The notes beneath the pieces were generated by a model, which was given only the letters and a program-made list of their open reading frames with translations, ran no database searches and was not told the origin of the DNA. The position numbers and the translations under genes are program-made. Positions 70-45,000 of a stretch of 46,218 bases of DNA are shown piece by piece. The DNA is from Candidatus Woesearchaeota archaeon. Lineage in GTDB: Archaea > Nanobdellota > Nanobdellia > SCGC-AAA011-G17 > PNOQ01. Every line of letters begins with the position of its first letter. Position 1 is the stretch's first letter. Location of the stretch: contig CAZCDH010000002.1 of assembly GCA_964497715.1 (NCBI GenBank), positions 2,810 to 49,027 of the forward strand, written 5' to 3'.

Positions 70-372
70 TCAAATATGATTTTTAAGATAATTTTTCAAA
101 CCCTTATAATCTTTATCTCTATCAAGAATACAGTGTATGAGTATATGAGATCCATCGACTTCATAAATGACTCTTTTTTCTTTTCTGTTATTTTCAAATC
201 TAACTCTAAAGAGCAAATAATTAAATCCTTTAACTCTTTTATATCTATGAGGATTTTGCTTAATCAATTTGAATTTTTTTTCTAGAATTCTCTTAGATTT
301 TGAAGTTAGTTTATCTAACTGTTTAAGGAAAAATCTTGAAGGCTTAAGAACATATTCCAAATTATCACCCAT
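70..372 (-). CDS. RelE/ParE-superfamily type II toxin
   Basis: Small basic protein with the pattern ...LIKQNPHRYKRVKG..LLFRVRF....RVIYEVDGSHILIHCILDRDKDY typical of RelE/ParE. I start it at the internal ATG (M12), which overlaps the upstream antitoxin stop by 8 nt (ATGGGTGA). The ORF-track start at 405 lies deep inside the antitoxin gene. Confidence 0.7.
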   Translation of the reverse strand: MGDNLEYVLKPSRFFLKQLDKLTSKSKRILEKKFKLIKQNPHRYKRVKGFNYLLFRVRFENNRKEKRVIYEVDGSHILIHCILDRDKDYKGLKNYLKNHI

Positions 373-607
373 CCAGTTTCTCAAACAATTCTTTTTCAGT
401 TCCAAAAAGATTTTTATTTTTAGTTAGATTAGTTAATTTTTTCACTAATTTAATCTCTTCTGAACTAAGTTCCTCTTCATCAAATAACTTCTCCCTAACA
501 ACTTCTTTGATGAACTCCTGTACTGTTCCAAAACCATTCTCTTCAGCAAAAGTTTTAGCAGAACTAAGCAGATTATTCGGCATTCTTACATTTATTTGAG
601 TATTCAT
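365..607 (-). CDS. Ribbon-helix-helix (CopG-like) antitoxin
   Basis: N-terminal INVRMPNNLLSSAKTFAEENGFGTVQEFIKEVVREKL looks like a strand-helix-helix motif, followed by an acidic tail, directly upstream of and overlapping the toxin. The track start at 628 is a TTG. The ATG at 607..605 sits 25 nt below a TATA box, consistent with a leaderless transcript. Confidence 0.6.
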   Translation of the reverse strand: MNTQINVRMPNNLLSSAKTFAEENGFGTVQEFIKEVVREKLFDEEELSSEEIKLVKKLTNLTKNKNLFGTEKELFEKLDG

Positions 608-632
608 AGTGATATTAATAGATACCAATTGA

Positions 633-651
633 TATATAAACCTTCCTATAT
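633..651 (-). promoter_or_regulatory. BRE/TATA-like promoter element, copy 2 of the 19-bp direct repeat
   Basis: Identical 19-mer to 37..55. On the minus strand TTTATATA lies 25 nt upstream of the antitoxin ATG (context TCACTATG, the same as copy 1). It overlaps the stop codon of the 646..1134 gene. Confidence 0.55.
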
Positions 652-1134
652 TAACCTAGCAATAATCCCAGTCCCATTGTTAAAAAACTTAACATCAAAA
701 CTGCCATCGGAAGTACCGTCACAAAGAGGACTACTTTCTAAAACAAGAAGAGGAATAAAACCATAACTCAATTCTTCTCCGGAGAAATAAACATTATCAC
801 TGTCACTATAACTAGAAGTTATATTCATATAAGTTGCTAGAGTCTCATCTAAAACAGAACTAAAATTTTGTTCTAAAGAGTGATCCATAATACAAATCTC
901 ATCAATACCCTCAGGAATACTTATAGAGTTAGCATAAACAACACTACCATAATTATCGCTATAAACCTGATCAACCTTGCCTTCTAAATCATTAATAAAA
1001 ACACTATACTCTACACTATCTCCAGTATCAATAACTCCTGCTATCCACTTAGCTCCTATTAATAATACAAGCACAGCTACGATGACATAGAACATATAAA
1101 TAAATGGCTGACCTAATACTTGTCCACGTTTCAT
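646..1134 (-). CDS. Secreted protein with class III (prepilin-type) signal peptide, type IV pilin-like
   Basis: The N-terminus MKRG|QVLGQPFIYMFYVIVAVLVLLIGA has a [KR]G-Q junction followed by one long hydrophobic helix. The body is acidic and Ser-rich. ATGA overlap with the upstream giant gene (1131-1134). Confidence 0.55.
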   Translation of the reverse strand: MKRGQVLGQPFIYMFYVIVAVLVLLIGAKWIAGVIDTGDSVEYSVFINDLEGKVDQVYSDNYGSVVYANSISIPEGIDEICIMDHSLEQNFSSVLDETLATYMNITSSYSDSDNVYFSGEELSYGFIPLLVLESSPLCDGTSDGSFDVKFFNNGTGIIARLI

Positions 1135-4100
1135 GGATATATTGTAAAGCTCCCTATATTATCAAAATCATCCTGACATTTAATATAATAAACATCAGAT
1201 CCTAAAGGAGCATAATGTACAGTTCTATCAAGACCAGAAGATTGCATCGCATTTCCTTCTGTTTCAAATGCAAAATTAGAGACCTCATTATCATATTTAC
1301 AATTAGCTGCCTCACTCAATACAAGATATAAATAATTTTGACCAGTATAAATACTCACAGGTTCTGGCGCATCTTCATCAGACACAACATAAAATGCAGA
1401 ACTATCACTTACAACATTATCTGCAAGATCTTCACAACTAACAACTAAGTTATGTAAAGTTCCAAAAGGACTTCCACTCAAAGCATCAGGATGTTCTAAA
1501 ACAAAACTCGGTCCAGACACTTCACTGAATTGATAACTCTGACCATCTAAAGTGTAGCTACACACAGTACCACCAATCACACTCTCTGCGAATACTTGGA
1601 TCAAAGGTGTTGAATCATAAGTTAAATTTCCGTCAGCAGGACTATCTATAGTAACATTAAAACTAGGTACGATATTAAAAGTTGCATTCAAGGAATCATA
1701 CTGAAGATTCGCTTGAACAAGACCTTCATTACCACTATTGTCTCTACATGCAAATTGGTACAAATAAGTCTCAATCCCATTTAATTCAAGATCAGGAGTT
1801 CCACTAAATACTAAATCAGTACTGAACATCTGGCAATCTGCAGTCTCACTTCCAGGACAAGCCACAGGAGTTCCACCACCGAAAGAATTTTCCATAGTAG
1901 CATACTCGGAGTTATCTTGAGAATATCTACAACCTTCTACACCATTAGGATTATCTCCAACAATAATATTCCAATTAACAGAGTTTGTACCTTCAGTCCT
2001 ATAGATCCCATTAGGTGGACTCATACTCCAGAAAGTAGGAGGTAAATAATCTGGTCTATCTCCAAACTTAACCTGTACAGAATAATAATCTTCACTAACT
2101 CCTTGATGATTCTCACTTAGATCTTCACACTTAATATAATAAGTAGCTCCGCCACCCTCTTTATCAGACTCGCTAAGATCAAATAAAATATCATTAGTGA
2201 AAGGATAATCTGATCTGCTAAATAAATTCATCTCGCTATACTCCATTCCACTAGCATCACCATACCTACAATTAGCCCTCTCAGGTTCACCAGCATCATT
2301 AGTAGTATTAACATTTATCTTAATTGAACCTACATCTTCCCAACCATAAACTCCAGAAAGAGGGGCAACTAAATTATTCATATTATTATTTTCAACGCTC
2401 TCTAAATACTCAATATAATTACCTTCTAAATCATAAACATCTAATCTAATATAGCTTACATGTGGCTCTTCTGCATCTCCAGAATCAATAGCAACACACG
2501 CACCAGTACCTGGATCATCACTATTCGGTACATATGCACAATGTTCATTATCTGCACCAAGAATATTACATCTATCTTCACTACAGTCCCACTGTCCTTC
2601 AGGTCCACCGCATTGCCAGCAATGATCACTATTAGTATATGATTGTTCAGGATCACAACTTCCAGCATTGACACCCTCAGCAAGTTGATAAATAGTATAC
2701 ATAATTCCTAAAGTTCTCAAAGCAGTGTTCATAAAACTTCCAGATTCTGCAGCAACCTCATCAGAAACACTGTCTGTGAAATCTTCAGTTATTTGATCTA
2801 AATAAACTTCATTATTAGGATTAACAATCTCCCAATCGCCAGGTCCTACTTGTAATCCATCGGCACCAAAATCAGAAACATAAGAAGAACCATATCTAGT
2901 AGAATAATCACTAACAACACCGTTAGCAGCATCAAATATTTCATCTCCACTCAATCCACTAACTGCACCAAGTATGTCGCTATTAAGAGACCTTTCAATA
3001 AAATATCTTCCAAGAGCTACAGAACTCATCGCACCTTCAGAACTAAGAAGCAATCTAGCAATATCAACAACTCCTTCACCAAGATCAAATCTATCTGCCA
3101 TATCTGCAGAAACATCACTAGCTTCTAAAACTCTCTCATTGTTAAAAGTCCTAGCAATAGCAAGAGTCTTAGCTAAATCTGCCTTACCCTCATCAGTCTC
3201 AGCAGAAAAATCATACTGTTCAACTTCTGCATTGACACGTTCAACATATCCACCAACAGTACCTATAACTCCCCAAAATAAATTACTACCAAACATAGAC
3301 CAGATAGTCTGACCAACACCACCCAAAAATCCAGCATTATTAGGATCGCAAAATGGAGTAATCTGACAAATAACATACAAACTGATAGCAGTACCAACAG
3401 CAGTACCAATAACTCCTGAAGCAGCATTAACCAGAGATTCCCAATTAGCTCCTTCTGGAATGAAATCACAATCTCCAATTAGATTGCACTCTTGCTCAGT
3501 ACAAATATTAGTATAAGGATCACCACCAGCACCACAAATATTACATCTCTCTTCTAAATCACTATCAGCAACATGAGGAGAATACTCAGGTTTAGGATTA
3601 CAAGAACCAAGAGGAGACCATGCAAAGTCGTGATCATAATCACAAAGTTTTAACCCTTCATCATTCTCAATATCTTCACAATCATCAGGAGTACAATACT
3701 CTCCAACAAGAGGGAGTATAATATTTGTACCAATTCCAGGAAGGTAACCAAAAACATCTATCAGATGTCTTGCCTCTCCACACTCAAAACAAGCCTCTGC
3801 ACCATTAGTTATGAACTTAGCATTTCTCCTATCAAATTCACCAAAATCCTTTACAGTACTTATACAAATTTTTTCACCATGGTCATAATTTTCAATAGCT
3901 TCAACTTCACCATTTTGACACTCTAAAACATACTCTTTCAAAAATTTACTCTTCTGATCACTAGAAAAAGAACCACTATACATTGTTAAACAAAGTTGCT
4001 CACCATTCTTAAATTCTATAGGGTCACAATCAGGACAATCAGGGACACAAGAAGTTGTTATACACTCTGCATTCTCACTTCCACCATCTTCATCAGCATC

Positions 4101-4832
4101 AAAACAAGTGTTATCAGGATAACCACAATCTTCAACAAGATCATCTCGATTTCCGTCACTATCATACCAAAATAATTTATGAACATCTCCTTCTTCAAGA
4201 TTTCCACAATTCAAACTAGTGTGGCCATCAGGTTCACTTAACCTAGCTGAACAAGAACTAACAGAACTACATTCAGTATTAGCATGCCAAAAAATGGGAT
4301 TGACACACATACTATTAAAAGTAAATTCACAACTGCCGGCCATCTCACAACAACCAACTTGATTATCAACACACTCATTATCACAAACAGCATTATTAGT
4401 TATCATTGGATCATGTTCGCCAGAACAAATATTTTCTTCAACAACATTACAAAGACCATTACTTTCACAACAACCTAATTTACAAGCCTGAACATTTTCT
4501 TTCGGTTGAGCATAAGGTGTTCCGCCCTCTGCACTACACTGAACCCTAGGATAATTAGACAAACAAGTACCAACAGCAGGAACACAAGTATCTAATTCAC
4601 AACTATCATCACCGTAAGCACCTAACTCAGAACAGCTAGTGTACTCAGCAAAAGTATCACACACACCAACATCAGCAACATCAACACAATAATCTCCATT
4701 TGGATGAGTAATGCAACATCCATCTGCAGCATAAACTGGTTCACTCTCAAGAACAATCGCAATATTAAACATAGCAAAAACTATCAAAGCAGAAAGAAAT
4801 ACACTAACCAATTTTTTATGATTAACTAACAT
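1131..4832 (-). CDS. Giant cysteine-rich multidomain surface/membrane protein, family unknown
   Basis: The uninterrupted ORF is 1239 codons from the track start. That start at 4850 is a TTG, so I use the ATG at 4832 (MLVNHKKLVSVFLSALIVFAMF...VYA|AD), which gives a Sec-type signal peptide. There are about 45 Cys in the first ~460 aa. Next come Gly-rich hydrophobic segments and a ~230-aa Cys-free region. A second Cys cluster and four C-terminal Cys-pair modules follow. Confidence 0.85.
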   Translation of the reverse strand: MLVNHKKLVSVFLSALIVFAMFNIAIVLESEPVYAADGCCITHPNGDYCVDVADVGVCDTFAEYTSCSELGAYGDDSCELDTCVPAVGTCLSNYPRVQCSAEGGTPYAQPKENVQACKLGCCESNGLCNVVEENICSGEHDPMITNNAVCDNECVDNQVGCCEMAGSCEFTFNSMCVNPIFWHANTECSSVSSCSARLSEPDGHTSLNCGNLEEGDVHKLFWYDSDGNRDDLVEDCGYPDNTCFDADEDGGSENAECITTSCVPDCPDCDPIEFKNGEQLCLTMYSGSFSSDQKSKFLKEYVLECQNGEVEAIENYDHGEKICISTVKDFGEFDRRNAKFITNGAEACFECGEARHLIDVFGYLPGIGTNIILPLVGEYCTPDDCEDIENDEGLKLCDYDHDFAWSPLGSCNPKPEYSPHVADSDLEERCNICGAGGDPYTNICTEQECNLIGDCDFIPEGANWESLVNAASGVIGTAVGTAISLYVICQITPFCDPNNAGFLGGVGQTIWSMFGSNLFWGVIGTVGGYVERVNAEVEQYDFSAETDEGKADLAKTLAIARTFNNERVLEASDVSADMADRFDLGEGVVDIARLLLSSEGAMSSVALGRYFIERSLNSDILGAVSGLSGDEIFDAANGVVSDYSTRYGSSYVSDFGADGLQVGPGDWEIVNPNNEVYLDQITEDFTDSVSDEVAAESGSFMNTALRTLGIMYTIYQLAEGVNAGSCDPEQSYTNSDHCWQCGGPEGQWDCSEDRCNILGADNEHCAYVPNSDDPGTGACVAIDSGDAEEPHVSYIRLDVYDLEGNYIEYLESVENNNMNNLVAPLSGVYGWEDVGSIKINVNTTNDAGEPERANCRYGDASGMEYSEMNLFSRSDYPFTNDILFDLSESDKEGGGATYYIKCEDLSENHQGVSEDYYSVQVKFGDRPDYLPPTFWSMSPPNGIYRTEGTNSVNWNIIVGDNPNGVEGCRYSQDNSEYATMENSFGGGTPVACPGSETADCQMFSTDLVFSGTPDLELNGIETYLYQFACRDNSGNEGLVQANLQYDSLNATFNIVPSFNVTIDSPADGNLTYDSTPLIQVFAESVIGGTVCSYTLDGQSYQFSEVSGPSFVLEHPDALSGSPFGTLHNLVVSCEDLADNVVSDSSAFYVVSDEDAPEPVSIYTGQNYLYLVLSEAANCKYDNEVSNFAFETEGNAMQSSGLDRTVHYAPLGSDVYYIKCQDDFDNIGSFTIYP

Positions 4833-5668
4833 AGTTTCAACAAGACACAAAATCTCACATCCTCCTCTCCTTCAACAGGTATATCAACATATTGGAATTC
4901 TTCACAGGCATTCAAACCATTACTACTAAATGTTAATTGATTGGCATAATCTATCTCTCCAGCAGAATAACTATATCCGTAACCAGAAAAAGGTATACCA
5001 TTAATATTACAAAATAAATTATAATCAGGATATCCAAGATAATCTCCACTATAACAACTAACAATTGCATTTCCAGCTCTCAAAGCCCTTCCAACAGGAA
5101 TTTCAACAACTGCCAAAAGACTATCTATAGTTCCAATATAATCTCCTCTACTTAATTCAATTGGATAACTAATAGACTGCTTCATCCCATTATCTGTTAT
5201 CAATGGAGCTTCTAAAACCATTTCACTAATCTCAGTAACAGAAAGACCAACTCCTTCAAATGAATCAAACACTAATTCAATACAACTATCAAGATCTAAA
5301 TCTTCTTCCATAAAATTTCTAATCTCATTACCTACCCTTTCAACACTCGGCAAATAAGTTCGAGGAACTCTGCCATCATAAGCATAAGCAACATTAGTAT
5401 CGTTCCAAGAAAGACTAATTTCCTCCAAAGGAGAATTAATTCCACCCCTTAACATCACATGTCTAACAGCGCTAAGTAAACTCGCTTCAGCACAAGACTC
5501 AATTCCAGATCTAACAGGTTCAATCTGTGCAGAAACAAATCTTTCTGACTCTTCACCTGTCAATTCATTAGGAAAAATATTGCCACGTAATTGAAAAAGA
5601 AGTCCCACAATAGCTAAAACAACAATACCTAAAATTATGAAAATCGTCACCTGCCCTCTTTTATTCAT
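4826..5668 (-). CDS. Secreted protein with class III (prepilin-type) signal peptide, type IV pilin-like
   Basis: The N-terminus is MNKRG|QVTIFIILGIVVLAIVGLLF. A TTTATAAA box lies about 23 nt upstream of the ATG, consistent with a leaderless transcript. The stop overlaps the giant gene ATG by 7 nt. Confidence 0.55.
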   Translation of the reverse strand: MNKRGQVTIFIILGIVVLAIVGLLFQLRGNIFPNELTGEESERFVSAQIEPVRSGIESCAEASLLSAVRHVMLRGGINSPLEEISLSWNDTNVAYAYDGRVPRTYLPSVERVGNEIRNFMEEDLDLDSCIELVFDSFEGVGLSVTEISEMVLEAPLITDNGMKQSISYPIELSRGDYIGTIDSLLAVVEIPVGRALRAGNAIVSCYSGDYLGYPDYNLFCNINGIPFSGYGYSYSAGEIDYANQLTFSSNGLNACEEFQYVDIPVEGEEDVRFCVLLKLC

Positions 5669-5725
5669 AAGGCCGAAATGTTGAAAGAAATTTATAAAGC
5701 TTTCGTATATAAAACCAGAAAAAAA

Positions 5726-8883: not shown

Positions 8884-9540
8884 TTATAGAAAATACTCTA
8901 TATCTTCAAGTTCAGAAAATCCACGAATAACATTATCATTTATCACAATGCTTGGGAAACTATCTATACCATACAAGGACTTCAAAATTCCTACCTCTTC
9001 AGATTCAAGATCATAATCAAATGAATAAACTCGCACAGAAGAAGGGTTCTCACTTTTTATGTAACTTAGAATGAAACCTTGCCTCTCACAATCCTCGCAT
9101 AAATCATTACCTTGGGAATCTTCTTTATTGGAATAGAAGTACAAAATAAGGTCATAATCTGAACCACACTCCTCCTTAATCTTCTTATAATGTAACCAAT
9201 CATAAATCTCTAAAAGAGTATAATATTTCTTCAAGTCCATAACCTTTTGATGAGTTTTTCCTAGCTTAGTTTCCAACTGCATTATTTCTGCAGAAACATA
9301 ACCAAACTCATTTTTCACAAAAGAATCAGACTTATAATCACAAATTTTGTCTTCAAGAAGGGCATTTCTTAATTCTAATCTAAACATATCATACCTAGTT
9401 TCATCATTAAACCTATCAACATGTTCAACAAACATTCGATCAGCAACCATACCAAATAAAAATGCAACAACAAAAATTAAACCAGTTATAACAAACGCCA
9501 GAATATAATTCTTTTTTGTAACTGTTCTTTTAACTACCAT
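8884..9540 (-). CDS. Membrane-anchored thioredoxin-fold protein with CxxC (putative extracytoplasmic thiol:disulfide oxidoreductase)
   Basis: One N-terminal TM segment (YILAFVITGLIFVVAFLFGMV). The C-terminal part reads LILYFYS...CEDC...VRVYSFD...FPSIVINDNVIRGF, consistent with a Trx fold (CxxC plus a cis-Pro strand). Confidence 0.5.
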   Translation of the reverse strand: MVVKRTVTKKNYILAFVITGLIFVVAFLFGMVADRMFVEHVDRFNDETRYDMFRLELRNALLEDKICDYKSDSFVKNEFGYVSAEIMQLETKLGKTHQKVMDLKKYYTLLEIYDWLHYKKIKEECGSDYDLILYFYSNKEDSQGNDLCEDCERQGFILSYIKSENPSSVRVYSFDYDLESEEVGILKSLYGIDSFPSIVINDNVIRGFSELEDIEYFL

Positions 9541-11164: not shown

Positions 11165-11857
11165 TTAGTTAGAGTACCTACCTTTTAAATTATTTTTCAT
11201 TATCTTGAAAAGCTCAAAAAGAGTAATAAGATAGTGAATAGGTTTAACTTTACTTCCTTCTACATTCTTCCAGACAACAGGGACCTCTTTAATTTTAATA
11301 TTATCTTTTTGTGCCAAAAACAGAATCTCAAAATCAAAACCAAATCCCTCAATAGTTTGTTTACTAAATAAACTATTGGCCACATCAGATTCATATAATT
11401 TAAATCCGCACTGTGTATCTTTTATTCCTTTGACAACAGATCTAATCAGCAGATTTCCAATACGGCCAAGTAATTTTCTAAAAATATTATTTTGAACTTC
11501 AGAATCTGCCAAAGCTCTCGAACCAATAACGATCGAATAAGAACTCATATACTTTTTCAACTTATCAAATTCTTCAATAGGTGTAGAAAGATCTGCATCA
11601 CTAAATAAAATCAAATCACCACTAGCCATAGCAACCCCTTCTTTTACAGAATATCCTTTCCCTTTATTTTCTCTTTTTTTATTTAATTTAATAGAATTAA
11701 ATCTCTCAACAACAGAACGAGTACCATCACTACTACCGTCATCTACAACAATGATCTCATGAAGATCATCCTTAAAGAATTCAGAAATCTTTTCAAGAGT
11801 ACTAACTATCCTTTTCTCTTCATTATATGCAGGAATTATTATTGAAACTTTAGACAT
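11165..11857 (-). CDS. Family 2 glycosyltransferase, polyprenyl/dolichyl-phosphate sugar synthase-like
   Basis: Contains VSIIIPAYNEE, VDDGSSDGT and SDADLS motifs. It is soluble and 230 aa, like DPM1/ArnC/AglD-type enzymes. Confidence 0.8.
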   Translation of the reverse strand: MSKVSIIIPAYNEEKRIVSTLEKISEFFKDDLHEIIVVDDGSSDGTRSVVERFNSIKLNKKRENKGKGYSVKEGVAMASGDLILFSDADLSTPIEEFDKLKKYMSSYSIVIGSRALADSEVQNNIFRKLLGRIGNLLIRSVVKGIKDTQCGFKLYESDVANSLFSKQTIEGFGFDFEILFLAQKDNIKIKEVPVVWKNVEGSKVKPIHYLITLFELFKIMKNNLKGRYSN

Positions 11858-13217
11858 TTTTATTCCTCAAAACATATTCTTCACACCAACTTGAATTATC
11901 ATAAAAAACAACATCATAATATCTTTTGAAATATTCTAACGGAAATTCTCCTTCAAAATCACACGAAGAATAGAATATACATCCAATACCATTAACTTGA
12001 GATCTTATTTGTGGAGTGGTCCAAGCCCCATAATATGGTTGAACATTATTCCAATGAACGGCCGCCAGAGGACTAGAGCTAGCTACCCTTACATTTTCAG
12101 AACAATATTCTAACAGTTCAGGAACATTCTCTTCGGCATAGAATTGGAGGACATCATTAGTATAGGGGAGAAGACCAAAAGTACTGAATGATACAATAAG
12201 ATAAAGAGCAAGTAAGACATATCTAGCTTTCTTAAATTTAAAATTAACAAAACCCAAACCAATTATTAGACAGATAGCAAATAATATCGGAGTGGTATAC
12301 CTCTCCTCCCTCATAGAAACAAAAAGCTGAAGGAATCCTCCAAAAATCAACATAGGAATCAAAACAAAGAATAATTTTTTCTCATTCATCTTCTTAAAAA
12401 AATGATACAATCCACTTACAAAAAATACCAATAAAAAATTAAAAAATAAAAATAAAAATACTATGTAGAACCAATCATACTGAGTTATCAAAATTGGCAC
12501 ACCATGATTAGTAGATATTGATGACAGTCCAGCTTTCAGAGAAATGAAAGCATCACCGAATTTAATATAATTATAATATAAGTACACACCAAGCATAGCA
12601 AATGCAGTTAAATTAAATCCAAAAAATCTACGAATGGATTTTGTCCTTCTTTTAATAACGTCCCAACCAAGTTTCAAACTAAGTGGAACTAATAAAACTG
12701 CAACAGGATACCTTATCAGCATTGCGAAACCTGCCAAAAATCCAGCTAAAACAGAATTAATAAATCCTCGTTTCAATATAAGATAATAAGCAAAAAGAAT
12801 GAAAAATGTAGCAGGAATACTAGAATATAATCTAAAACCCAAGAAAAAAAACAGAGCATTAAAGGCCAGAACAAAACTTGCAATCAAAGCAACTTTCTTA
12901 TCAAAAATTTTCTTACCTATTAAATAAACCAAATAAATAATTCCAAGATTACAAAACACTTCAAAAATTCTACCAAACAAAACAACATCTAAACCAAGCT
13001 TCCAAAAAATACCAAAAATAAATGGCAAACCTATGGGCCTTAAAAATTCCCAGAATCCAAAAGTTCCAAACATACTTTTTGCCATTCCAATATATACTGC
13101 AGAGTCCCACCAAATACCATTAAATCTGTTAAAGAAAATTAATCTAAGAATAATAGTAGATATAAGAATAAAAAATATGAATTTATTTTCAATAAAAAAT
13201 CTTTTTAGCTTAACCAT
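11850..13217 (-). CDS. GT-C fold glycosyltransferase (ArnT/PMT_2, GT39/GT83-like)
   Basis: More than 10 TM helices in the N-terminal ~350 aa, WWDSAVY in the first loop, and a soluble C-terminal domain. Overlaps the downstream GT2 gene by 8 nt. Confidence 0.7.
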   Translation of the reverse strand: MVKLKRFFIENKFIFFILISTIILRLIFFNRFNGIWWDSAVYIGMAKSMFGTFGFWEFLRPIGLPFIFGIFWKLGLDVVLFGRIFEVFCNLGIIYLVYLIGKKIFDKKVALIASFVLAFNALFFFLGFRLYSSIPATFFILFAYYLILKRGFINSVLAGFLAGFAMLIRYPVAVLLVPLSLKLGWDVIKRRTKSIRRFFGFNLTAFAMLGVYLYYNYIKFGDAFISLKAGLSSISTNHGVPILITQYDWFYIVFLFLFFNFLLVFFVSGLYHFFKKMNEKKLFFVLIPMLIFGGFLQLFVSMREERYTTPILFAICLIIGLGFVNFKFKKARYVLLALYLIVSFSTFGLLPYTNDVLQFYAEENVPELLEYCSENVRVASSSPLAAVHWNNVQPYYGAWTTPQIRSQVNGIGCIFYSSCDFEGEFPLEYFKRYYDVVFYDNSSWCEEYVLRNKNV

Positions 13218-13223
13218 GTAGGA

Positions 13224-13718
13224 TCACTCCGAAATATCACCAAACTTTGATTTCAATTCTTCTTGTACAACATCAAAATAATCATAAAATTTCTGAGTTA
13301 ACTTCAAGAGTTTTGTTCTTCCAAATTTTTCAGAAGTAACAAACCCTTCTTCTTTTAATTTTCTAATGTGATCATAACATTTATTCCCACGAACTGAAAC
13401 AACATCACATTGAATTGCAGGTTGTTTATATGCGACCACTGCCAAAGTTTTTTGAGTCGGCATATCAAGCTCAGCATTATCTAATAATTTCTCAGTTAAA
13501 TAAAGATAACTCTTCTTTATGTTTAATTTCCATTTACCTGCCTCTTCAATTATCTCCAAAGCAGATTCTCTCCCCTCATAATCCTTTTGAACCTCTTTAA
13601 TCAGTGTTCTTAAATAACCTGCACTACCAATACCACATAATGCACTTAGCTCTTCGAACTTTAGAAATCTACCAGTTGTAAAAAGTACAGCCTCTATTTT
13701 ATTTTTGTCATTAGACAT
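13224..13718 (-). CDS. scpB: Segregation and condensation protein B
   Basis: Two winged-helix repeats: IEAVLFTTGRFLKFEELSALCG... and ...TLAVVAYKQPAIQCDVVSVRG. Confidence 0.75.
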   Translation of the reverse strand: MSNDKNKIEAVLFTTGRFLKFEELSALCGIGSAGYLRTLIKEVQKDYEGRESALEIIEEAGKWKLNIKKSYLYLTEKLLDNAELDMPTQKTLAVVAYKQPAIQCDVVSVRGNKCYDHIRKLKEEGFVTSEKFGRTKLLKLTQKFYDYFDVVQEELKSKFGDISE

Positions 13719-13751
13719 AACTCAGAAATAGCAAGAAAGGATTTAAATAAT

Positions 13752-14843
13752 TTACTGAAGTTCATATCTTAAGAATGCTGCAACTTTTCCAATATTTCTT
13801 AATTGTTCACCCTCACGAGTCTCAACAGAAATCATAATAATCTCTGCACCAGTATCAACAGCTTTTTGTTCAAGTTTATCAATTAATTCTTGATCAGTTT
13901 TCTCAGAAACAAGAATTTTTTGAACTGCAGCCTTATCTAATGCATCAATCACATCTTTTTCACCATAGCAAACTTTCTTTGAACCTTTTGCAAGTTCAGA
14001 AAAGAAATCTTCCATTATTTGTTTCTCTTCAATTATGCTCTCTTCAGCAAGAGCCTCACTACTCTTATCAACAAGCTCATTCAAACCAAACTCTCCAGTA
14101 TAACTAAGGTCCTGAACACTTTTTATTTTAGCCTTAATTCGTGTATCCATGTAATATCCATCAATAAAATACTCCTTAGTAGGACCAGGACCACCAACTA
14201 AAAGTCCTTTCATATCTTTCAACTCTAAGAACTCTTTATTTACAGCATCGCCAATTCTCTTAAAGAACTCATGCATTGCTTCTTCTCTTAATCTAGCATA
14301 TCTCTGTTGACTCTGACCACCCTTTGTGGTTTTCCCAGGAACATTTGAAGTAAAGCTAGCCAATTCAACAATTGCAGTCCCTTTTAACATACCAATATTT
14401 CCTTCACGCCTATCAACAACAAGAAGGCCATAAGATTCTTTGTGCTCCATCATATCTTTAAGAATATCAGTAACAAATCTTTGATCACATCTGTATAACC
14501 TAGTCTGTAAAGGTTGAGGAGGTTCAACACTAAAAACTTCTATCTTAATTTGACTCTCATTTTTAGAAATATTTCCTGCGAATACAGCAAGACCATTTTC
14601 TGGAGTTTTTTTATATAATCTAAGATGACGAATAACTTTCTCAATACTATCTATAACATTTTTTCTAGTTCTAGCATCTTTAATATTTGTAGCAGTGTGC
14701 TGCTCTTGAGAGAGATGTGCAATAATCTTATGAAGAGAATATCCTACAGGAATATAATAACTAACCAACTCGGTATGCCTTCCCCTATTAGAATCTAATT
14801 CATTAACAAATTTTTTCAACTTTAACTTTTCTTTCGTATCCAT
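13752..14843 (-). CDS. prf1: Peptide chain release factor aRF1
   Basis: GGQSQQRYARL (GGQ), YRCDQRF (YxCxxxF), and TATNIKD in place of the usual NIKS. Confidence 0.85.
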   Translation of the reverse strand: MDTKEKLKLKKFVNELDSNRGRHTELVSYYIPVGYSLHKIIAHLSQEQHTATNIKDARTRKNVIDSIEKVIRHLRLYKKTPENGLAVFAGNISKNESQIKIEVFSVEPPQPLQTRLYRCDQRFVTDILKDMMEHKESYGLLVVDRREGNIGMLKGTAIVELASFTSNVPGKTTKGGQSQQRYARLREEAMHEFFKRIGDAVNKEFLELKDMKGLLVGGPGPTKEYFIDGYYMDTRIKAKIKSVQDLSYTGEFGLNELVDKSSEALAEESIIEEKQIMEDFFSELAKGSKKVCYGEKDVIDALDKAAVQKILVSEKTDQELIDKLEQKAVDTGAEIIMISVETREGEQLRNIGKVAAFLRYELQ

Positions 14844-14844
14844 C

Positions 14845-17238
14845 TTAAAATAGTATTCTTAGTTTACTTCCAACTTCAATATCTTTTGCACAACTAACAG
14901 ATTTCAAGTCACCTAAACTATCTCTCAATAAACTTTCATCATCTGCACAAAGAGTTAGAGAAATCTCTGCTTTTAAAGATTTGTTATGTTTTGCCTTAGT
15001 CTGCCTAATCTCCGTAATTACTTCAACAAATCTATCCCAAACCCCTTCATTATGTTCATCTTTCAGTTGTTTATCATATTTACTAAACTCAGAGATATGA
15101 ATACTTTCACAATCTTCAAATTTGTATAGGTGATAAATCTCCTCTGTAATGTAAGGCATAATTGGAGCAAATAATTTTAAACTATTTAGAATCAAATATT
15201 TCAAAGTGTATTGTGCACTTCTTCTTGAACTCTCTCCGCGACTATCAGGATTGTATAACCTATCTTTAGCAATCTCTAAATAATTATCACAAATCTGATT
15301 CCAGAAAAAAGACTCTGTAAGAGATTTTGCTTTAGAATACTCATATTTTCCAAAAAGTTCATGCACTTCTTTTACCATATTATTAAACTTAGATAAAATT
15401 CCCTTATCTATAGAATCTAATTTTGTAGATTTATTATCAAAATCTTCAAGATGCATAATAGAGAATTTAGATGCATTCCACAATTTATTAATCATCTTTA
15501 CACCAGTCATAACATCATCTTCAAGATATGAATAATCTTTCCCTAAAGATGAACCTGATGCCCAGAATCTCATAGCATCTGCACCATACTTATCTAATAT
15601 TGTCCGAGGATTAACAACATTGCCTTTTGACTTTGACATCTTCTCCTTATTCGGATCAAGAACAAATCCAGAGATAGCAACATCTTTCCAAGGAATCTCA
15701 CCACAATTATAAATTCCTTTAACAATAGTATAAAACGCCCAAGTTCTAATTATATCATGTGCTTGTGGCCTCAAAGACATAGGATACATTTTTTCAAATT
15801 TAACATTATTATACTCGCTACTTTTATCTCCTGCCCAGTTTAAAACAATCTGAGGAGTTAAAGAGGAAGTTGCCCAAGTATCCATAACATCTTGTTCAGG
15901 AACAAAATTATCAGAACCGCAAGAACATTTCTTCAAAGGTTTATCTTTAAATGGATCAACAGGTAATTGTTTTTCATCAGCAATAATCTCAGAACCACAA
16001 TCTTCACAATGCCAAAGAGGAAAAGAGATTCCATAAAATCTCTGTCTAGAAATGCTCCAATCCCAACTTAAGTTTTTTACCCAATTAACATATCTTGTTT
16101 TCATAAATTCAGGATACCAATTTATTTTATCAGCAGCCTTAATCAATTTAGTTTTATTTTTAAGAACTTCAATAAACCACTGTTTTGAAGCTAGAAATTC
16201 TATCTCGGTTCCACATTTATCATGAACATTAACAGCATGCTCAATAGATTTTGTATTAACCAATAATTTTTCATTTTCTAAATCTTCTAAAATCTTCAGC
16301 CTTGCCTCTTTTAATTTTAAACCAGAATAAGAATTAGCAAGATCATTCATTTTACCTTCTTTAGTTAAAACAATACGTGGATCTAAATCTCTTTTAGAGA
16401 TTGCTTCAACATCATACTTATCACCATAACTACAAATCATCAAAACACCTGTACCTTTTTCAGGATCAGCAGATTCATCAGCAAAAATAGGGACTTCATA
16501 ATCGAATAATGGAACCTTAGCACTCTTACCAACAATTTTTTTATATTTTTTATCCTCTGGATGCACATAAATACAAACACATGCTGGAATCAATTCTGGA
16601 CGAGTAGTAGAGACTACCAAATCTTTTCCATCAACTTTAAAAACAATATCATTAAAACTTGATTTGAAATTTTTATCTTCCAACTCGGCCTGAGCAATAG
16701 CAGTTTTACAATTAACACACCACATGGTTGGTGCAGTCTTTAATTTGACTAATTTTTTCTTATACAAATCAATGAAAGACTTTTGAGAAGTTTTCATAGA
16801 ATGTTCATCAATTGTTGAATAAGTTGTATCAAAATCACAACTCATACAGATATTCTTCCAATCTTGGATAAAATCAGGTTTAACTTCTTTAACAGTTTTT
16901 TGACACAATTTAACAAAATCTGATTTACTCATAGAGTTATGTTTGACCTTCTTTAATTTTTCAACCAATCTCTCAGTAGGTAGACCATTATCATCAGTAC
17001 CAAAAGGAAAGAAAACATTCTTACCATTCATCCTATGATACCTAACAAGAAAATCTTGTTGGGAATATGAAAATGCATGTCCAATATGCATATCTCCAGA
17101 AACAGTTGGAGGAGGAGTATCTACAGAATAAATTTCTTTTTTACTCTTTGGATCAAATTTATAGATTCCTTCTTTCTTCCAAAATTCATCCCATTTCTTT
17201 TCAGAAACTTTAAAATCATATTTTTTAGGTAACTTCAT
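14845..17238 (-). CDS. valS: Valyl-tRNA synthetase (class Ia)
   Basis: PPPTVSGDMHIGHAFSY (HIGH), KMSKSKGN (KMSKS) and WCVNCKTAIAQAE. The track start at 17250 is a TTG, so I use the ATG at 17238 (MKLPKKYDF). Assignment as Val rather than Leu/Ile is by motif resemblance only. Confidence 0.8.
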   Translation of the reverse strand: MKLPKKYDFKVSEKKWDEFWKKEGIYKFDPKSKKEIYSVDTPPPTVSGDMHIGHAFSYSQQDFLVRYHRMNGKNVFFPFGTDDNGLPTERLVEKLKKVKHNSMSKSDFVKLCQKTVKEVKPDFIQDWKNICMSCDFDTTYSTIDEHSMKTSQKSFIDLYKKKLVKLKTAPTMWCVNCKTAIAQAELEDKNFKSSFNDIVFKVDGKDLVVSTTRPELIPACVCIYVHPEDKKYKKIVGKSAKVPLFDYEVPIFADESADPEKGTGVLMICSYGDKYDVEAISKRDLDPRIVLTKEGKMNDLANSYSGLKLKEARLKILEDLENEKLLVNTKSIEHAVNVHDKCGTEIEFLASKQWFIEVLKNKTKLIKAADKINWYPEFMKTRYVNWVKNLSWDWSISRQRFYGISFPLWHCEDCGSEIIADEKQLPVDPFKDKPLKKCSCGSDNFVPEQDVMDTWATSSLTPQIVLNWAGDKSSEYNNVKFEKMYPMSLRPQAHDIIRTWAFYTIVKGIYNCGEIPWKDVAISGFVLDPNKEKMSKSKGNVVNPRTILDKYGADAMRFWASGSSLGKDYSYLEDDVMTGVKMINKLWNASKFSIMHLEDFDNKSTKLDSIDKGILSKFNNMVKEVHELFGKYEYSKAKSLTESFFWNQICDNYLEIAKDRLYNPDSRGESSRRSAQYTLKYLILNSLKLFAPIMPYITEEIYHLYKFEDCESIHISEFSKYDKQLKDEHNEGVWDRFVEVITEIRQTKAKHNKSLKAEISLTLCADDESLLRDSLGDLKSVSCAKDIEVGSKLRILF

Positions 17239-17287
17239 ACTACTAATCAAATCTCAAAGTTTTTATTTAAAACTTTCTAATATAGAA

Positions 17288-18109
17288 CTAAAAATTCATA
17301 GTTTTGCGATTATGTGTAGCAACAAGAGTAATAGGATCTATAGACATACCGTCCCTAGCGGCAATAGTCTGTATTTTTGATTGCATTTGAATTTGCCTTG
17401 CTTGATAAATCGGATCTTTCTCAATCATTTTTTGACCAAAATGAGTAATAATTACTAATTGAGGTTTAACTTCTTTAACAATTTTTACACAATCTTCAGA
17501 AGAAAGATTATTTTTATCTTTATACCCAAACGGACTGAGACTATTAAGGATTAAAATATCGCAACCTTTCAAATCTTCAACTACCTCAGAAGAATACTCA
17601 GTATCAGAGCTGTAACCTAAAGTAAAACTACCGTTGCTAAACTTAAAACCTATGCCATGAGGATCCTTGTGTTTAGTTTTTAATGCTGTAATATTAATAT
17701 TATTATTAAATTTGACTTTATGTCCCGCATCCAATGCAAGGTATTTTTCAATCTGTTGCCTATGGTCCTTAGTTAAATAAGGGCGCCTATTATCATTGCC
17801 ATAAACTACTGACCTACTAGCAAGCAAAATACCAGATTTATCCAAACCAGAATGAGTCATAGCTTCAATCATAATATTGACATCATTACAATGATCCAAC
17901 ATAGAATTACTAGCCAATAAAACACTAGTCTCCCTAGGGTTTATATTGTACTCTCTTGCCCTAACAAGTGCACCAGGACCAGGATCCACATGAAACTGGA
18001 TACCACTGATTCTTAAAATGATTCCTCCAGAAGCTCTTAATTGTCTTCCGACAGAAAACCTACCACCTCCTGTTCCAAGAAACACTATTTCATTTAAAGG
18101 CATACTCAA
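17288..18109 (-). CDS. Metallo-beta-lactamase-fold hydrolase (degenerate HxHxDH)
   Basis: FLGTGGGR..., ...NSMLDH..., ...SSDTEY... and ...ITHFG follow the MBL motif order. The first two His of motif 2 are replaced. Confidence 0.65.
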   Translation of the reverse strand: MSMPLNEIVFLGTGGGRFSVGRQLRASGGIILRISGIQFHVDPGPGALVRAREYNINPRETSVLLASNSMLDHCNDVNIMIEAMTHSGLDKSGILLASRSVVYGNDNRRPYLTKDHRQQIEKYLALDAGHKVKFNNNINITALKTKHKDPHGIGFKFSNGSFTLGYSSDTEYSSEVVEDLKGCDILILNSLSPFGYKDKNNLSSEDCVKIVKEVKPQLVIITHFGQKMIEKDPIYQARQIQMQSKIQTIAARDGMSIDPITLVATHNRKTMNF

Positions 18110-18189
18110 AATTAGATAACCTTAAATCACTTTTAAAGATATATGAGATATATGTAAATTAACTGTAAAAATTTTGATACTTCGAAAGA

Positions 18190-18197
18190 TTTAAATA
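18190..18197 (+). promoter_or_regulatory. TATA box for tRNA-Phe
   Basis: TTTAAATA ends 26 nt upstream of the tRNA 5' end. Confidence 0.5.
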
Positions 18198-18223
18198 GCA
18201 AATTAGAAATACAAAAGGCATAC

Positions 18224-18297
18224 GGGACGGTAGCTCAGTCTGGGAGAGCGCTAGACTGAAGATCTAGATGTCGGGGGTTCAAATCCCCCTCGTCCCA
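18224..18297 (+). tRNA. tRNA-Phe (anticodon GAA)
   Basis: Hand-folded cloverleaf. Acceptor GGGACGG/TCGTCCC (one G-U), D-arm GCTC/GAGC, anticodon stem CTAGA/TCTAG with loop CTGAAGA, T-arm GGGGG-TTCAAAT-CCCCC, discriminator A. No intron and no encoded CCA. Confidence 0.9.
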
Positions 18298-18321
18298 TAA
18301 AATTAGGTGAATTCTTAAAAA

Positions 18322-19488
18322 ATGGGACTAGAAAAAATAATCAAAAAAAGTAAAAACCTCATATTAGGTTCACTAATTGCAGCACAAGCTATCTCTTTTG
18401 GAGGTTGTGAAAGCAAGATTACTGTACCAGAAGAAGAAAACGTACCATATATAGAATATCAAAACGAAGAAACAAATCAAGAAGGCCAAGTAACATTTGA
18501 AACAGGTGAAACATTACAAATTCTAGATCAAGAAACACAAGAACCGATAGAAGACATAGCAATAAATTATTACACAGATGATTCAGAAGAATATAGAATT
18601 CTAACGATTACAGATGAAACAGATACCTATCTCCCAGCAAGAAGATATCTAGCTAATTTTGAGAACGAAACAGTTTCATTACAAAGATCACAAAATCAAG
18701 AATACACATTTAGAGAACTATCAGAAAATGAAAGAGGACCATTTATGAAATATATGAAAGAAAATATTGAAAACACAAATAATTCACAAAGAACTACAGA
18801 TTGTTCAAATTACATAAGAACAAATAGAGGAGATGAAGTACTTAGAGGAGATAATATTGTTGATAAAATGATAACCTATTTTGTGCCACATGGAGGAGTA
18901 TTAGTAGAAATAGTAAATTTCTTACAAAATCTTGAGGCAATTATTGAAGGATATAATAATTTTGAAGAAATGACTCTTTCAAATAATTGGGATTCATATT
19001 CTTTATCTACAAACGAACAAAATAGTCAATTATGTGGATTACTAATAGAAAGCAATCAACCAGTTATTAATAGCTTTACAAAAAGCATAATAGAAGAGGG
19101 AGAGTATCAAGGATATTATAAAATAGAATTAGATGTAACTGATCTAATTACTTATTTAGATGGAACAACTGACAAAACCATATCATGTACAGGAGATGGA
19201 GAGGAGCATAACCTGTACCAATGGTTAACATTTCAGAATCTAACACATCCAGGTCATGGGTGGGGGCAATGGAGTATTAATACAGATCAAGTAATATCGG
19301 AAGAAAGGGTGATATTTTCACAAATAATGGCAGGAATACCACCTCACGCATTACCTGGAGATTATCTGATCTATGGGAGAATATATGATGACACTTGTGA
19401 ATTCTGGCCAGAAGGCCATTGGGAATATAATCAATTAAACGTAGGATATACAGATACATTAGAAATCACAATTCAACCAAGAAAATAA
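18322..19488 (+). CDS. Secreted, possibly lipid-anchored acidic protein, function unknown
   Basis: Signal peptide ending in the lipobox-like AISFGGC. The body is rich in E, N and T and has no recognisable motif. Confidence 0.6.
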   Translation: MGLEKIIKKSKNLILGSLIAAQAISFGGCESKITVPEEENVPYIEYQNEETNQEGQVTFETGETLQILDQETQEPIEDIAINYYTDDSEEYRILTITDETDTYLPARRYLANFENETVSLQRSQNQEYTFRELSENERGPFMKYMKENIENTNNSQRTTDCSNYIRTNRGDEVLRGDNIVDKMITYFVPHGGVLVEIVNFLQNLEAIIEGYNNFEEMTLSNNWDSYSLSTNEQNSQLCGLLIESNQPVINSFTKSIIEEGEYQGYYKIELDVTDLITYLDGTTDKTISCTGDGEEHNLYQWLTFQNLTHPGHGWGQWSINTDQVISEERVIFSQIMAGIPPHALPGDYLIYGRIYDDTCEFWPEGHWEYNQLNVGYTDTLEITIQPRK

Positions 19489-19536: not shown

Positions 19537-20058
19537 ATGAAAACTCATTCTAGTAAAAGAGGAGCAATAGAACTATCAATGACAACAATAATAGTAGTAG
19601 TCATTGGAGTAACATTATTAACACTAGGATTAACTTTTGTAAAAAACATCATGGGTGGAGCAGAAGGAATAAGCGAAGAAGCTTTCACTGAAGCAGATAG
19701 AATGATTAGAGACATGATGGGAAGTGATGAAGAATTTTATATATCGGGAATTACATTTAATGTTAGACCTGGTGAAAGAATAACTGCAGGAGTGGGAGTA
19801 AGAGATTATAACAACTGGACAACACTTGTACTAACCCCTGAAGTAACAGGTGGAGAATGTAGTGCAGATTGGATTTTACTTCCAGAGAGTACACTAAATA
19901 CAAATCCTGGAGATTTAACATCGATTCCATTCCAAATACTTGTCCCAGGAGGTACACCCGTCGGACCAACTTGTTTTTACACAATAACGGCAACTTCGGC
20001 AAACCCTTCACAAGTTTATGGATATAAAACAATAATTGTTAATCTAGTGAGTGATTAA
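19537..20058 (+). CDS. Archaeal type IV pilin-like protein (class III signal peptide)
   Basis: The N-terminus is MKTHSSKRG|AIELSMTTIIVVVIGVTLLTLGLTF. A GGTGAT Shine-Dalgarno site lies 8 nt upstream. The globular part is small and beta-rich. Confidence 0.65.
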   Translation: MKTHSSKRGAIELSMTTIIVVVIGVTLLTLGLTFVKNIMGGAEGISEEAFTEADRMIRDMMGSDEEFYISGITFNVRPGERITAGVGVRDYNNWTTLVLTPEVTGGECSADWILLPESTLNTNPGDLTSIPFQILVPGGTPVGPTCFYTITATSANPSQVYGYKTIIVNLVSD

Positions 20059-29051: not shown

Positions 29052-29436
29052 CACAATAATAGAAATAGTGGGCATGCCAAAAGAACACGTAGTAGATACA
29101 ATGCAAAAAGTAGTTGACCTTATAGAAAAAGATGAGGAAATAAAACTAGAAAGCAAAGATACTGCCGAACCTGAACTAGTTAAAGAACTTTGGTCTACGT
29201 TTACAGAATTCGAACTAGAGTTTAAAACCTTCAAAAAATTAACAGGATTTTGCTTTGATTTCATGCCATCTTCAGTAGAAATAATATCTCCAGAAAAACC
29301 AGAACTAAATTCCAAAGATATTGAAGATTTATTGAATGATGTACTTGCTAAAACTCATCAATACGATATGGCATTAAAAAGAATGATACTTGAAAAAAGA
29401 GCAAAAGAAAGACAAGAAAATTCTAAGACGGCTTAA
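29032..29436 (+). CDS. Hypothetical acidic cytoplasmic protein
   Basis: ORF of 134 aa with coding-like composition and no recognisable motif. It overlaps both neighbours. Confidence 0.5.
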   Translation: MEKIKINTIIEIVGMPKEHVVDTMQKVVDLIEKDEEIKLESKDTAEPELVKELWSTFTEFELEFKTFKKLTGFCFDFMPSSVEIISPEKPELNSKDIEDLLNDVLAKTHQYDMALKRMILEKRAKERQENSKTA

Positions 29437-30748: not shown

Positions 30749-30749
30749 T

Positions 30750-42603: not shown

Positions 42604-42619
42604 AGTGTATCACCTATAT

Positions 42620-43507: not shown

Positions 43508-43548
43508 TTTAAATTAAAAAAAACTTTGAGATATAAAAATGTTTCTAA

Positions 43549-44907: not shown

Positions 44908-45000
44908 AAACTTGCCTAGTATTTCTTGGAAAGTTATTTTCCATCACCCGATATATGAATTGATTCACTAATCTTTAATCACCTTTTAATTAAACTAGAT

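Follow-up and report, generated by a model that had tools for sequence, protein, structure and literature searches.

A 46,218-nucleotide stretch of DNA from a Candidatus Woesearchaeota archaeon (GenBank assembly GCA_964497715.1, contig CAZCDH010000002.1, positions 2,810 to 49,027 of the forward strand; hereafter the window) carries close to its start a group of three minus-strand genes which, judged from their sequence and from the gene order in relatives, are the promoter-side half of a six-gene cell-surface module that is conserved in DPANN archaea of Woesearchaeales type. The first gene of the group, g1 (p1 in the order of the module; 4826-5668), encodes a pilin-like protein of 280 amino acids (aa) that starts MNKRGQVTIFIILGIVVLAIVGLLF and carries the leader MNKRG/Q, in which the slash marks the predicted cleavage point. 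It is followed by g2 (1131-4832), encoding a giant protein of 1233 aa counted from its ATG, and by g3 (p3; 646-1134), encoding another pilin-like protein of 162 aa with the start MKRGQVLGQPFIYMFYVIVAVLVLLIGA and the leader MKRG/Q. The stop of g1 and the start of g2 share the letters ATGTTAG (4826-4832), giving a 7-nt overlap, and g2 and g3 overlap by the 4 nt ATGA (1131-1134). An initial annotation of the window had described the same three genes and the same two overlaps, and a check of the open reading frames (ORFs) and of the sequence confirmed them as real. An alternative start of g2, a TTG at 4850, lies upstream of the ATG; the ATG was preferred because the homologues begin at its position with the same MLxxxKK leader.

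An archaeal promoter stands ahead of g1 (5691..5705, minus strand), composed of a CGAAAGC that resembles a transcription factor B recognition element (BRE) and of the TATA box TTTATAAA (TATA at 5691-5698). The presence of a single TATA box before the first gene had been pointed out earlier with a spacing of about 23 nt, and the measured distance from the box to the g1 ATG at 5668 is 22 nt. A GAAA(G/C)NTTTATA(A/T)AT element was found 22-24 nt ahead of the p1 ATG in 11 related loci. Because the same element recurs at the same distance in these 11 relatives, the element upstream of g1 was taken as a real archaeal BRE/TATA promoter. From the two overlaps and the single conserved BRE/TATA, g1, g2 and g3 appear to form one transcription unit, and its transcript is probably leaderless or short-leader. 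The G+C content of the window is about 30%, its housekeeping genes are archaeal (PCNA, TFS, RpoL, eRF1 and aminoacyl-tRNA synthetases), and its closest relatives are Woesearchaeota or 'archaeon' metagenome-assembled genomes (MAGs), isolates SI037_bin53 and SI048_bin40, together with metagenome contigs of the Joint Genome Institute.

The two small products have similar N-termini and different globular parts. In p1, the leader MNKRG/Q and a hydrophobic helix precede an alpha/beta globular domain with 7 Cys; AlphaFold2 (AF2) modeled helices at residues 4-31 and 38-73 followed by this alpha/beta domain, with a predicted local distance difference test (pLDDT) score of 87 and a predicted template modeling (pTM) score of 0.80. 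The segment MNKRGQVTIFIILGI was near-invariant at the N-terminus of 23 p1 homologues with an overall identity of about 25%. The g3 protein combines a conserved GQ[VIL]xGQP and a hydrophobic helix with a small globular part that holds 2 Cys, and the profile of its family gave 23 ORF matches in related loci.

Modular architecture of the giant protein

The product of g2 can be divided into five regions, all encoded on the minus strand. Residues 1-35 (4728..4832) make up a Sec-type signal peptide, consisting of MLVNHKK, a hydrophobic core and the predicted cleavage site VYA/A, and equivalent leaders are kept in the homologues. The N-module, residues 36-460 (3453..4727), is an acidic ectodomain delimited by its Cys positions, by invariant Cys columns and by the stand-alone forms encoded elsewhere. 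It is very acidic, contains about 10% Cys and three GCC-x3-G-x-C knots, and dozens of its Cys columns are invariant among homologues. The whole protein holds 62 Cys, 43 of which fall within residues 1-455; the Cys-rich N-terminus noted in the initial annotation thereby stands, and its count of about 45 Cys in the first ~460 residues is corrected to this figure.

Residues 461-535 (3228..3452) form a hydrophobic region that is rich in Gly (17%) and almost free of charge, as seen in a hydropathy scan, in the composition and in the helices of the AF2 model. Membrane helices were predicted by the hydropathy scan at about 467-493 and 500-532, and both are helical in the AF2 model; we infer that the two are a hairpin membrane anchor, a topology read from sequence. 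The following linker, residues 536-719 (2676..3227), is variable, acidic and helical, and was delimited by alignment gaps and insertions and by its composition; it is devoid of Cys, tends to vary by indels and has a weakly hydrophobic helix at its end (about 691-720). The C-module, residues 720-1233 (1134..2675), was recognized from repeat motifs, AF2, Foldseek and the stand-alone genes elsewhere. It begins with a CWQCGGPEGQWxC...C knot, after which come four tandem immunoglobulin-like (Ig-like) beta-sandwich repeats with a conserved Cys pair in each. All four repeats carry the motif C[RKS]Y near the start and h-x-h-x-C-x-D-x-x-x-N near the end, at positions 855/898, 968/1025, 1091/1129 and 1178/1215. 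The earlier description of a protein of about 1230 aa with a Sec-type signal, internal hydrophobic segments and repeated C-terminal modules was thus accurate, with 1233 aa, segments at about 467-532 and four modules.

The AF2 model of the giant, built on an 8-sequence alignment, had a mean pLDDT of 52 and reached 70-88 only for mature residues of about 740-1198, which were modeled as tandem beta-sandwiches. Foldseek comparison of this model with the PDB returned generic multi-Ig ectodomains only, at query-normalised TM values of 0.15 or less, and the matches of the C-module included receptor Ig/FnIII domains, cadherins, a Haloferax S-layer (surface-layer) protein, Salmonella SiiE and Aureispira GhpA. 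The C-module is tandem Ig-like, as in adhesins and S-layer proteins. The giant had no match in scans against Pfam and NCBIfam or in a profile search against PDB sequences. In particular, neither the Pfam S-layer models (S_layer_N and S_layer_C) nor Neisseria_PilC, the C-terminal beta-propeller of PilY1 type, matched it; in relatives, the S_layer_C protein is encoded by a gene of its own farther downstream, and the part of the giant modeled confidently consists of the four beta-sandwich domains. The g1 profile likewise found no match among PDB sequences. The statement that none of the three proteins belongs to a characterized family therefore holds against Pfam and NCBIfam, and beyond family level the giant resembles only generic tandem Ig-like proteins.

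Profile matches of the giant divide at the central linker. Several genomes encode the N-module on its own, as a Sec-signal protein of 540-710 aa that contains about 43-45 Cys and lacks a membrane segment. The C-module, where separate, is a protein of 530-790 aa and comprises an N-terminal hydrophobic segment, a Gly-rich multi-helix hydrophobic block, the Cys knot and the Ig-like repeats. An exhaustive HMMER run of the N-module profile gave 484 clusters (50% identity) at E<=1e-3, of which 141 reached E<=1e-10 and 33 reached E<=1e-30, and the family falls into two length classes of about 600 aa and about 1100-1400 aa. The giant is a fusion of a secreted Cys-rich N-module with a membrane-anchored Ig-like C-module.

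The six-gene unit and its pairing rules

A word-indexed protein search retrieved seven homologues of the giant, and on their contigs the gene order was PCNA, a gene for a protein of about 280 aa, the giant, genes for proteins of about 160, 275, 147 and 140 aa, an S-layer gene (PF05124) and two genes for small N-anchored proteins. The unit p1, giant, p3, p4, p5, p6 was found in at least 12 related MAGs, usually with an anchorless S-layer gene after it. Among the related loci, which are given here by L numbers, the full six-gene order was present in L001, L002, L004, L006, L008, L012, L013, L014, L016, L021 and L022; the order was recovered with family profiles built from four loci, which gave the full order in L012, L013, L014, L016, L021 and L022. 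A diverged six-gene order was present in L067, L074, L062, L058 and L056. Downstream of the module, L001, L002, L004, L006, L008, L012, L014, L021 and L022 carry the PF05124 S-layer gene, this adjacency being confined to the closer set. The check on conservation in relatives showed the three-gene arrangement to be strongly kept in many species-level genomes, and the 'pilin-giant-pilin triad', in which two pilins had been said to bracket the giant, proved to be the 5' half of a six-gene unit of five pilin-like genes and a two-module giant, as the order in relatives shows.

The window itself ends shortly after g3. A toxin-antitoxin-like pair (CopG/Arc-like and ParE-like; 70..628, minus strand), identified by weak sub-threshold Pfam matches and preceded by a TATA-like element of its own, is of interest as context only; it occupies the position of the p3-p4 junction of relatives, after which the window edge ends the unit. 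In the closest relative, whose giant is 89% identical, p4 begins 80 nt past p3 with no insertion, and in L008 a different toxin-antitoxin pair (PIN_2 and RHH_12) sits at the same junction. This intergenic spot seems to attract toxin-antitoxin insertions. The genes p4, p5 and p6 and the S-layer gene are expected, by comparison with relatives, just past coordinate 1 of the window.

Beyond the close relatives, a p1 alignment scan with one genome per GTDB species revealed at least 199 loci. All of the 80 p1 loci kept came from DPANN-type MAGs, namely Woesearchaeota, Pacearchaeota, Nanoarchaeota/Nanoarchaeia, two contigs of one 'Diapherotrites' MAG and a few labelled 'uncultured Methanosarcinales'. 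A p1-like gene lay directly ahead of the N-module gene in 24 of 24 cases, whether that gene was fused or alone. None of the stand-alone C-module genes was preceded by p1, and 5 of 8 were followed by p3, which comes after the C-module in both the full-length and the split forms. Among the 86 p1-like genes with enough downstream sequence, 68 were followed by an ORF of at least 500 aa (up to 2475 aa), and only 24 of these 68 large ORFs belong to the giant family described here. Several genomes possess two or more p1-giant cassettes, with three in L060. From these pairing counts, a p1-like protein and one large secreted protein make up the minimal unit, to which the window version adds an anchored Ig-like stalk and four further pilin-like genes.

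The ORF of 2475 aa lies at 11827-19254 (plus strand) of L089, a Woesearchaeota MAG locus, as the partner of a p1-like protein of 612 aa, and contains an SLT lytic transglycosylase domain at residues 2184-2279. As this domain hints, bacterial cell walls may be a target of some p1-associated giants.

The neighborhood of the module in close relatives is syntenic and includes eRF1, ScpB, GT2, RpoL, TFS and PCNA; an origin of the locus from a mobile element or virus was rejected on the ground of this stable synteny with housekeeping genes. The S-layer protein encoded after the module in relatives lacks a membrane anchor at its C-terminus. The two small N-anchored proteins encoded after the S-layer gene (about 165 and 212 aa; L006 18631-19786, plus strand, with equivalents in L001, L002 and L004) are mutual paralogues with an hhalign probability of 98% and are unrelated to the pilin-like families.

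Several further genes of the window also encode surface proteins. At 29423-32486 (minus strand), two adjacent secreted proteins of 578 and 441 aa display Cys-rich stalk repeats of the C-x-x-D-x-D-C type and a C-terminal anchor and match no Pfam family; other secreted proteins, of about 590 aa and with N-terminal signal peptides that resemble those of this pair, are encoded upstream of the PCNA-p1 clusters of L039, L043, L058, L060 and L074. Four consecutive secreted or N-anchored proteins of 302, 295, 452 and 373 aa, again without a Pfam family, are encoded at 41695-46122 (minus strand), two of them with lipoprotein-like ...SGC leaders and one with a Cys-rich C-terminus. A protein of 482 aa at 27603-29051 (plus strand) has two lamin-tail (LTD) domains and a C-terminal hydrophobic anchor, and the synteny of the LTD gene extends to relatives. 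In the window as a whole, unannotated surface proteins are unusually numerous. At 8884-9540 (minus strand), an N-anchored protein of 218 aa without a Pfam match carries a CEDC motif in a C-terminal part that looks thioredoxin-like, and its gene adjoins the GT2 glycosyltransferase gene in all relatives; going by the motif, this protein could be relevant to disulfide formation in Cys-rich exported proteins.

Pilin-like leaders and the function of the module

The proteins p1 and p3-p6 share their N-termini. In each, a basic leader of 4-5 residues has Gly as its last residue, position +1 is Gln, and a hydrophobic helix of about 20 residues follows; [KR]GQ is present in all five families. The class III-type leader reads MNKRG/QVTIFIILGIVVLAIVGLLF in g1 and MKRG/QVLGQPFIYMFYVIVAVLVLLIG in g3 and is of the same type in p4-p6 of relatives, with hydropathy peaks of 2.6-3.4. 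The mean frequency of the commonest residue in the five families was 0.64-0.71 in the first 20 columns versus 0.34-0.51 elsewhere. Mutual hhalign comparison of p1, p3, p4, p5 and p6 gave probabilities of 70-95% over the N-terminal 30-100 columns only, and two neighboring N-anchored membrane proteins used as controls (m8 and m9) remained below 11% versus the five families. The KRGQV junction and hydrophobic helix attributed earlier to the first and third products were accordingly found again in their M(N)KRGQV starts, which belong to the best-conserved part of each family. In Methanococcus maripaludis, EppA substrates have leaders of 5-13 aa that end in Gly and are followed by Gln at +1 (PMC3875500), and this EppA-type feature of Gln+1 after Gly is present in all five families. 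On this pattern, the N-termini made of [KR]GQ and a helix resemble class III (type IV pilin-like) leaders in their behavior and would be cleaved after Gly.

A further pilin-like ORF of 173 aa is located elsewhere in the window (19537-20058, plus strand). It starts MKTHSSKRGA/IELSMTTIIVVVIG and is a conserved stand-alone gene just before the cysteinyl-tRNA synthetase gene. Its 68 homologues have 110-191 aa (most 160-180), and many are alike mainly or only over the first third. The secreted protein encoded ahead of it varies, being a 388-aa protein in the window and a PD40/Tricorn-like or CBM96 protein in relatives. With its pilin-type pattern of conservation, this gene is a candidate for a major pilin, and filament core genes were not found in two neighborhoods of its homologues.

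The reading favored here, held with even confidence, is that the module encodes a minor-pilin-like set and a bipartite adhesin, both in the service of an Epd-like type IV filament system whose genes lie elsewhere. The operon would be transcribed from the conserved BRE/TATA promoter, and the five pilin-like proteins would be cut between Gly and Gln by an EppA/PibD-type prepilin peptidase encoded elsewhere. Through their N-terminal helices, p1 and p3-p6 may then build either a short filament or a complex with a priming or tip-like role within the Epd-like system. The giant would be exported by Sec and kept in the membrane by its hydrophobic hairpin with both large domains outside, a topology preferred because the separate N- and C-modules are Cys-bearing proteins of extracellular type, because the linker is acidic with few Lys and Arg, and because an even number of membrane helices is needed. 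The disulfide-rich acidic head formed by the N-module would bind p1, the stalk of four Ig-like domains formed by the C-module would associate with p3-p6, and the assembled parts might act as an adhesion or cell-contact device at the S-layer. The initial annotation had proposed that pilin-like subunits present or anchor the giant. This agrees with the invariable position of p1 directly before the Cys-rich module; the giant, however, carries its own hydrophobic hairpin and therefore has no need of pilins to stay on the cell.

Several observations weigh against this favored reading. Pilin models (Class_IIIsignal/DUF361, Pilin_N and the NCBIfam archaeal pilin/flagellin N-terminal models) matched none of the five small proteins, at cut-offs of E<=1 (Pfam) and E<=0.1 (NCBIfam) for g1 and g3 and of E<=0.1 in both for p4-p6. 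Foldseek comparison of the confident p1 model with the PDB returned no pilin and nothing at E<0.01. Glu at +5 is present in none of the five families; this position is F in g1 and Q in g3, and Glu stands at +6 in p5 and at +3 in p6. Inspected by eye against the FlaFind-type motif, which we take to be [KRDE][GA][ALIFQMVED][ILMVTAS]x3, RGQVTI of g1 fits and RGQVLG of g3 is off at the last position. Built from just 8 sequences, the AF2 model had pLDDT values below 50 in the N-module and the membrane region of the giant and therefore permits no statement on the fold of the Cys-rich N-module. As a membrane-embedded protein, the giant cannot ride the tip of an extended pilus in the way PilY1 does, and the adhesive or host-contact function is one that we infer.

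The filament machinery bears on the favored reading in the same direction. A type IV pilus assembly ATPase, a TadC/platform protein and an A24 peptidase were not found in the window by Pfam scans of ORFs of at least 150 aa, by the relatives' Pfam annotation of the remaining ORFs and by a six-frame search for Walker A and GxGD motifs, which agrees with what the initial annotation had stated for the window. A search of 90 fetched related loci for Walker A (PilB-type) and GxGD multi-pass motifs gave no usable match. A GxGD match in L019 was rejected as a peptidase, the protein being SRP54, and genes for proteins of about 590 and 430 aa upstream of the PCNA-p1 clusters of other genomes were rejected as ATPase and platform genes after their N-termini were seen by eye to resemble those of secreted surface and DNA-primase-like proteins. 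The pilin genes of M. maripaludis are spread over four or more loci apart from that of the ATPase (PMC3875500), and an ATPase missing from a pilin locus is, according to that study, normal for archaeal pilin genes. In addition, Epd-type 'System 1' filament systems have been reported in DPANN (10.64898/2026.04.22.720090).

The PF05124 gene that follows the module in nine loci, the product of which lacks a C-terminal membrane anchor, allows the module to be read instead as an S-layer anchoring or remodelling complex, which would tether the anchorless S-layer lattice or open it locally by means of the pilin-like proteins, the giant and the two N-anchored proteins encoded downstream and would have no role in adhesion. 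The Haloferax S-layer protein among the Foldseek matches of the C-module points the same way, as do the binding of an S-layer protein by FlaF, a monotopic archaellum membrane protein, as reported in PMC4425475, and the proposal that S-layer-like proteins in archaeal filament loci prime the envelope (10.64898/2026.04.22.720090). However, the whole neighborhood is syntenic in close relatives, and the adjacency may simply be inherited; the module persists without a detectable adjoining S-layer gene in the diverged L067, L074 and L062; and several paralogous p1-giant cassettes per locus, as in L060, and per genome resemble a variable adhesin repertoire rather than a single anchor. This S-layer reading is regarded as unlikely.

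It is also conceivable, and quite unlikely, that the small proteins are not pilins, the [KR]GQ helices being uncleaved signal anchors and p1 and p3-p6 being type II membrane proteins that are complexed with the giant independently of filament machinery. Filament machinery not found near any fetched locus, the absent pilin matches among hidden Markov models, a p1 fold that is not recognisably pilin-like, the several proteins without Glu at +5 and the departure of g3 from the FlaFind-type motif all suit such anchors. Contrarily, the conservation of KRGQVTIFII at about 25% overall identity goes far beyond what an anchor needs and suggests recognition by an enzyme or an assembly machine, the leader type is common to five unrelated families and is not shared by the neighboring N-anchored proteins, and Gly followed by Gln+1 matches the EppA substrates (PMC3875500). 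Even if the class III reading fails, the module is a conserved envelope complex beside an S-layer gene.

A bolder proposal, to which we attach a distinctly small probability, makes the p1-giant cassette a DPANN-specific surface-display system derived from type IV pilins. The p1-like protein would act as an adaptor coupling interchangeable giant effectors, such as the Cys-rich heads or the lytic transglycosylase giant, to a short host-reaching filament through the S-layer, and the hairpin might serve in contact with or bridging to the host membrane; if true, this would be a host-attachment or host-penetration machine without a characterized counterpart. Very little credence is given to a type II secretion-like pseudopilus, in which the five pilin-like proteins would drive the folded Cys-rich module, or N-module proteins that stand alone, across the S-layer like a piston: stand-alone N-modules are secreted without an anchor and each has a p1-like gene as its partner, and four to five unequal pilin-like proteins with no obvious major pilin in the operon recall the GspH-K set, but the substrates already carry Sec signals, no linked ATPase or platform gene was found, the fused giant remains membrane-anchored, and we know of no type II secretion-like system in archaea.

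The Woese- and Pacearchaeota are uncultivated. For the way in which DPANN archaea recognize and hold other cells, the module is a concrete, widely conserved candidate and comes with pairing rules that link p1 to the Cys-rich head and p3-p6 to the Ig-like stalk.

Relation to known archaeal and bacterial systems

In bacteria, the type IVa pilus operon fimU-pilVWXY1E encodes, among four to five minor pilins of unequal size, a Sec-signal non-pilin protein of about 1100-1200 aa, and PilY1 can be present in several paralogous cassettes per genome, for instance in the Myxococcus clusters. The diversity of PilY1 in myxobacteria is the subject of PMC13190605. The module of the window shares with this operon the placement of a large non-pilin protein among minor pilin genes, which is an analogy of organization only. 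The giant differs from PilY1 in having no beta-propeller/Neisseria_PilC domain and in its tandem Ig-like C-terminus, and it would be anchored by a hairpin instead of being a soluble adhesin carried at a tip; no homology links the two.

Among archaeal systems, the Epd accessory locus of M. maripaludis (EpdA-C minor pilins and EppA; 'System 1') likewise combines several pilin-like genes in one operon with non-pilin accessory or adhesin-like proteins. Short leaders ending in Gly with Gln at +1 are common to both, and the ATPase and platform genes of the Epd system lie at another locus (PMC3875500); System 1 has been reported in DPANN (10.64898/2026.04.22.720090). On the other hand, no sequence similarity between the two and no DUF361/Class_IIIsignal match was detected, the module lacks Glu at +5 and has no peptidase gene in the locus, and the Epd locus has no counterpart to the 1233-aa Cys-rich hairpin-anchored protein. 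In the Sulfolobus bindosome (class III sugar-binding proteins with BasABC pilin-like proteins) and in archaellum FlaF/FlaG, pilin-like N-termini also hold proteins in or near the S-layer without a long filament (10.64898/2026.04.22.720090; PMC4425475). Unlike the bindosome, the module has no solute-binding domains and no adjoining BasEF-type ATPase or membrane genes, and its families are unrelated.

The closest likeness in overall plan is with archaeal type IV filament loci, for which the literature describes sets of minor pilins, large 'adhesin' proteins that are Ig-rich or carry a signal peptide and have conserved Cys, and S-layer-like proteins (PMC4858521; 10.64898/2026.04.22.720090). The archaeal pilus loci of Makarova, Koonin and Albers 2016 (clades 4B/4E/4G, with an Ig-rich adhesin-like protein of arCOG05616 type) consist of diverse small pilin-like proteins, one or two very large Cys/Ig proteins and an S-layer or S-layer-like protein, as does the module (PMC4858521). 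The ATPase and TadC genes served to define those loci, whose main occurrence is in Thermoproteales and Euryarchaeota, whereas the module is unlinked to core machinery, was found only in Woese-, Pace- and Nanoarchaeota MAGs and is made of families without Pfam or NCBIfam coverage. The resemblance to these loci and to the PilY1 operon thus seems to be one of organization, without detectable homology.

A literature search found no description of this particular cluster, on which papers about low-oxygen and sulphidic marine waters are silent. To call it an undescribed apparatus, as the initial annotation did, was an overstatement, considering that comparable archaeal loci with minor pilins, a large adhesin and S-layer-like proteins have been described (PMC4858521; 10.64898/2026.04.22.720090). 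Pilin-like sets with large Ig-rich, Cys-bearing adhesin-like proteins and an S-layer association are a kind of system already known; new here are the lineage, the six families for which no curated model exists, the strict association between p1 and the N-module, the occurrence of the giant in fused and split forms, and its hairpin anchor. The archaeal theme of minor pilins joined with a large adhesin is thereby extended to a lineage and to families outside the current family models.

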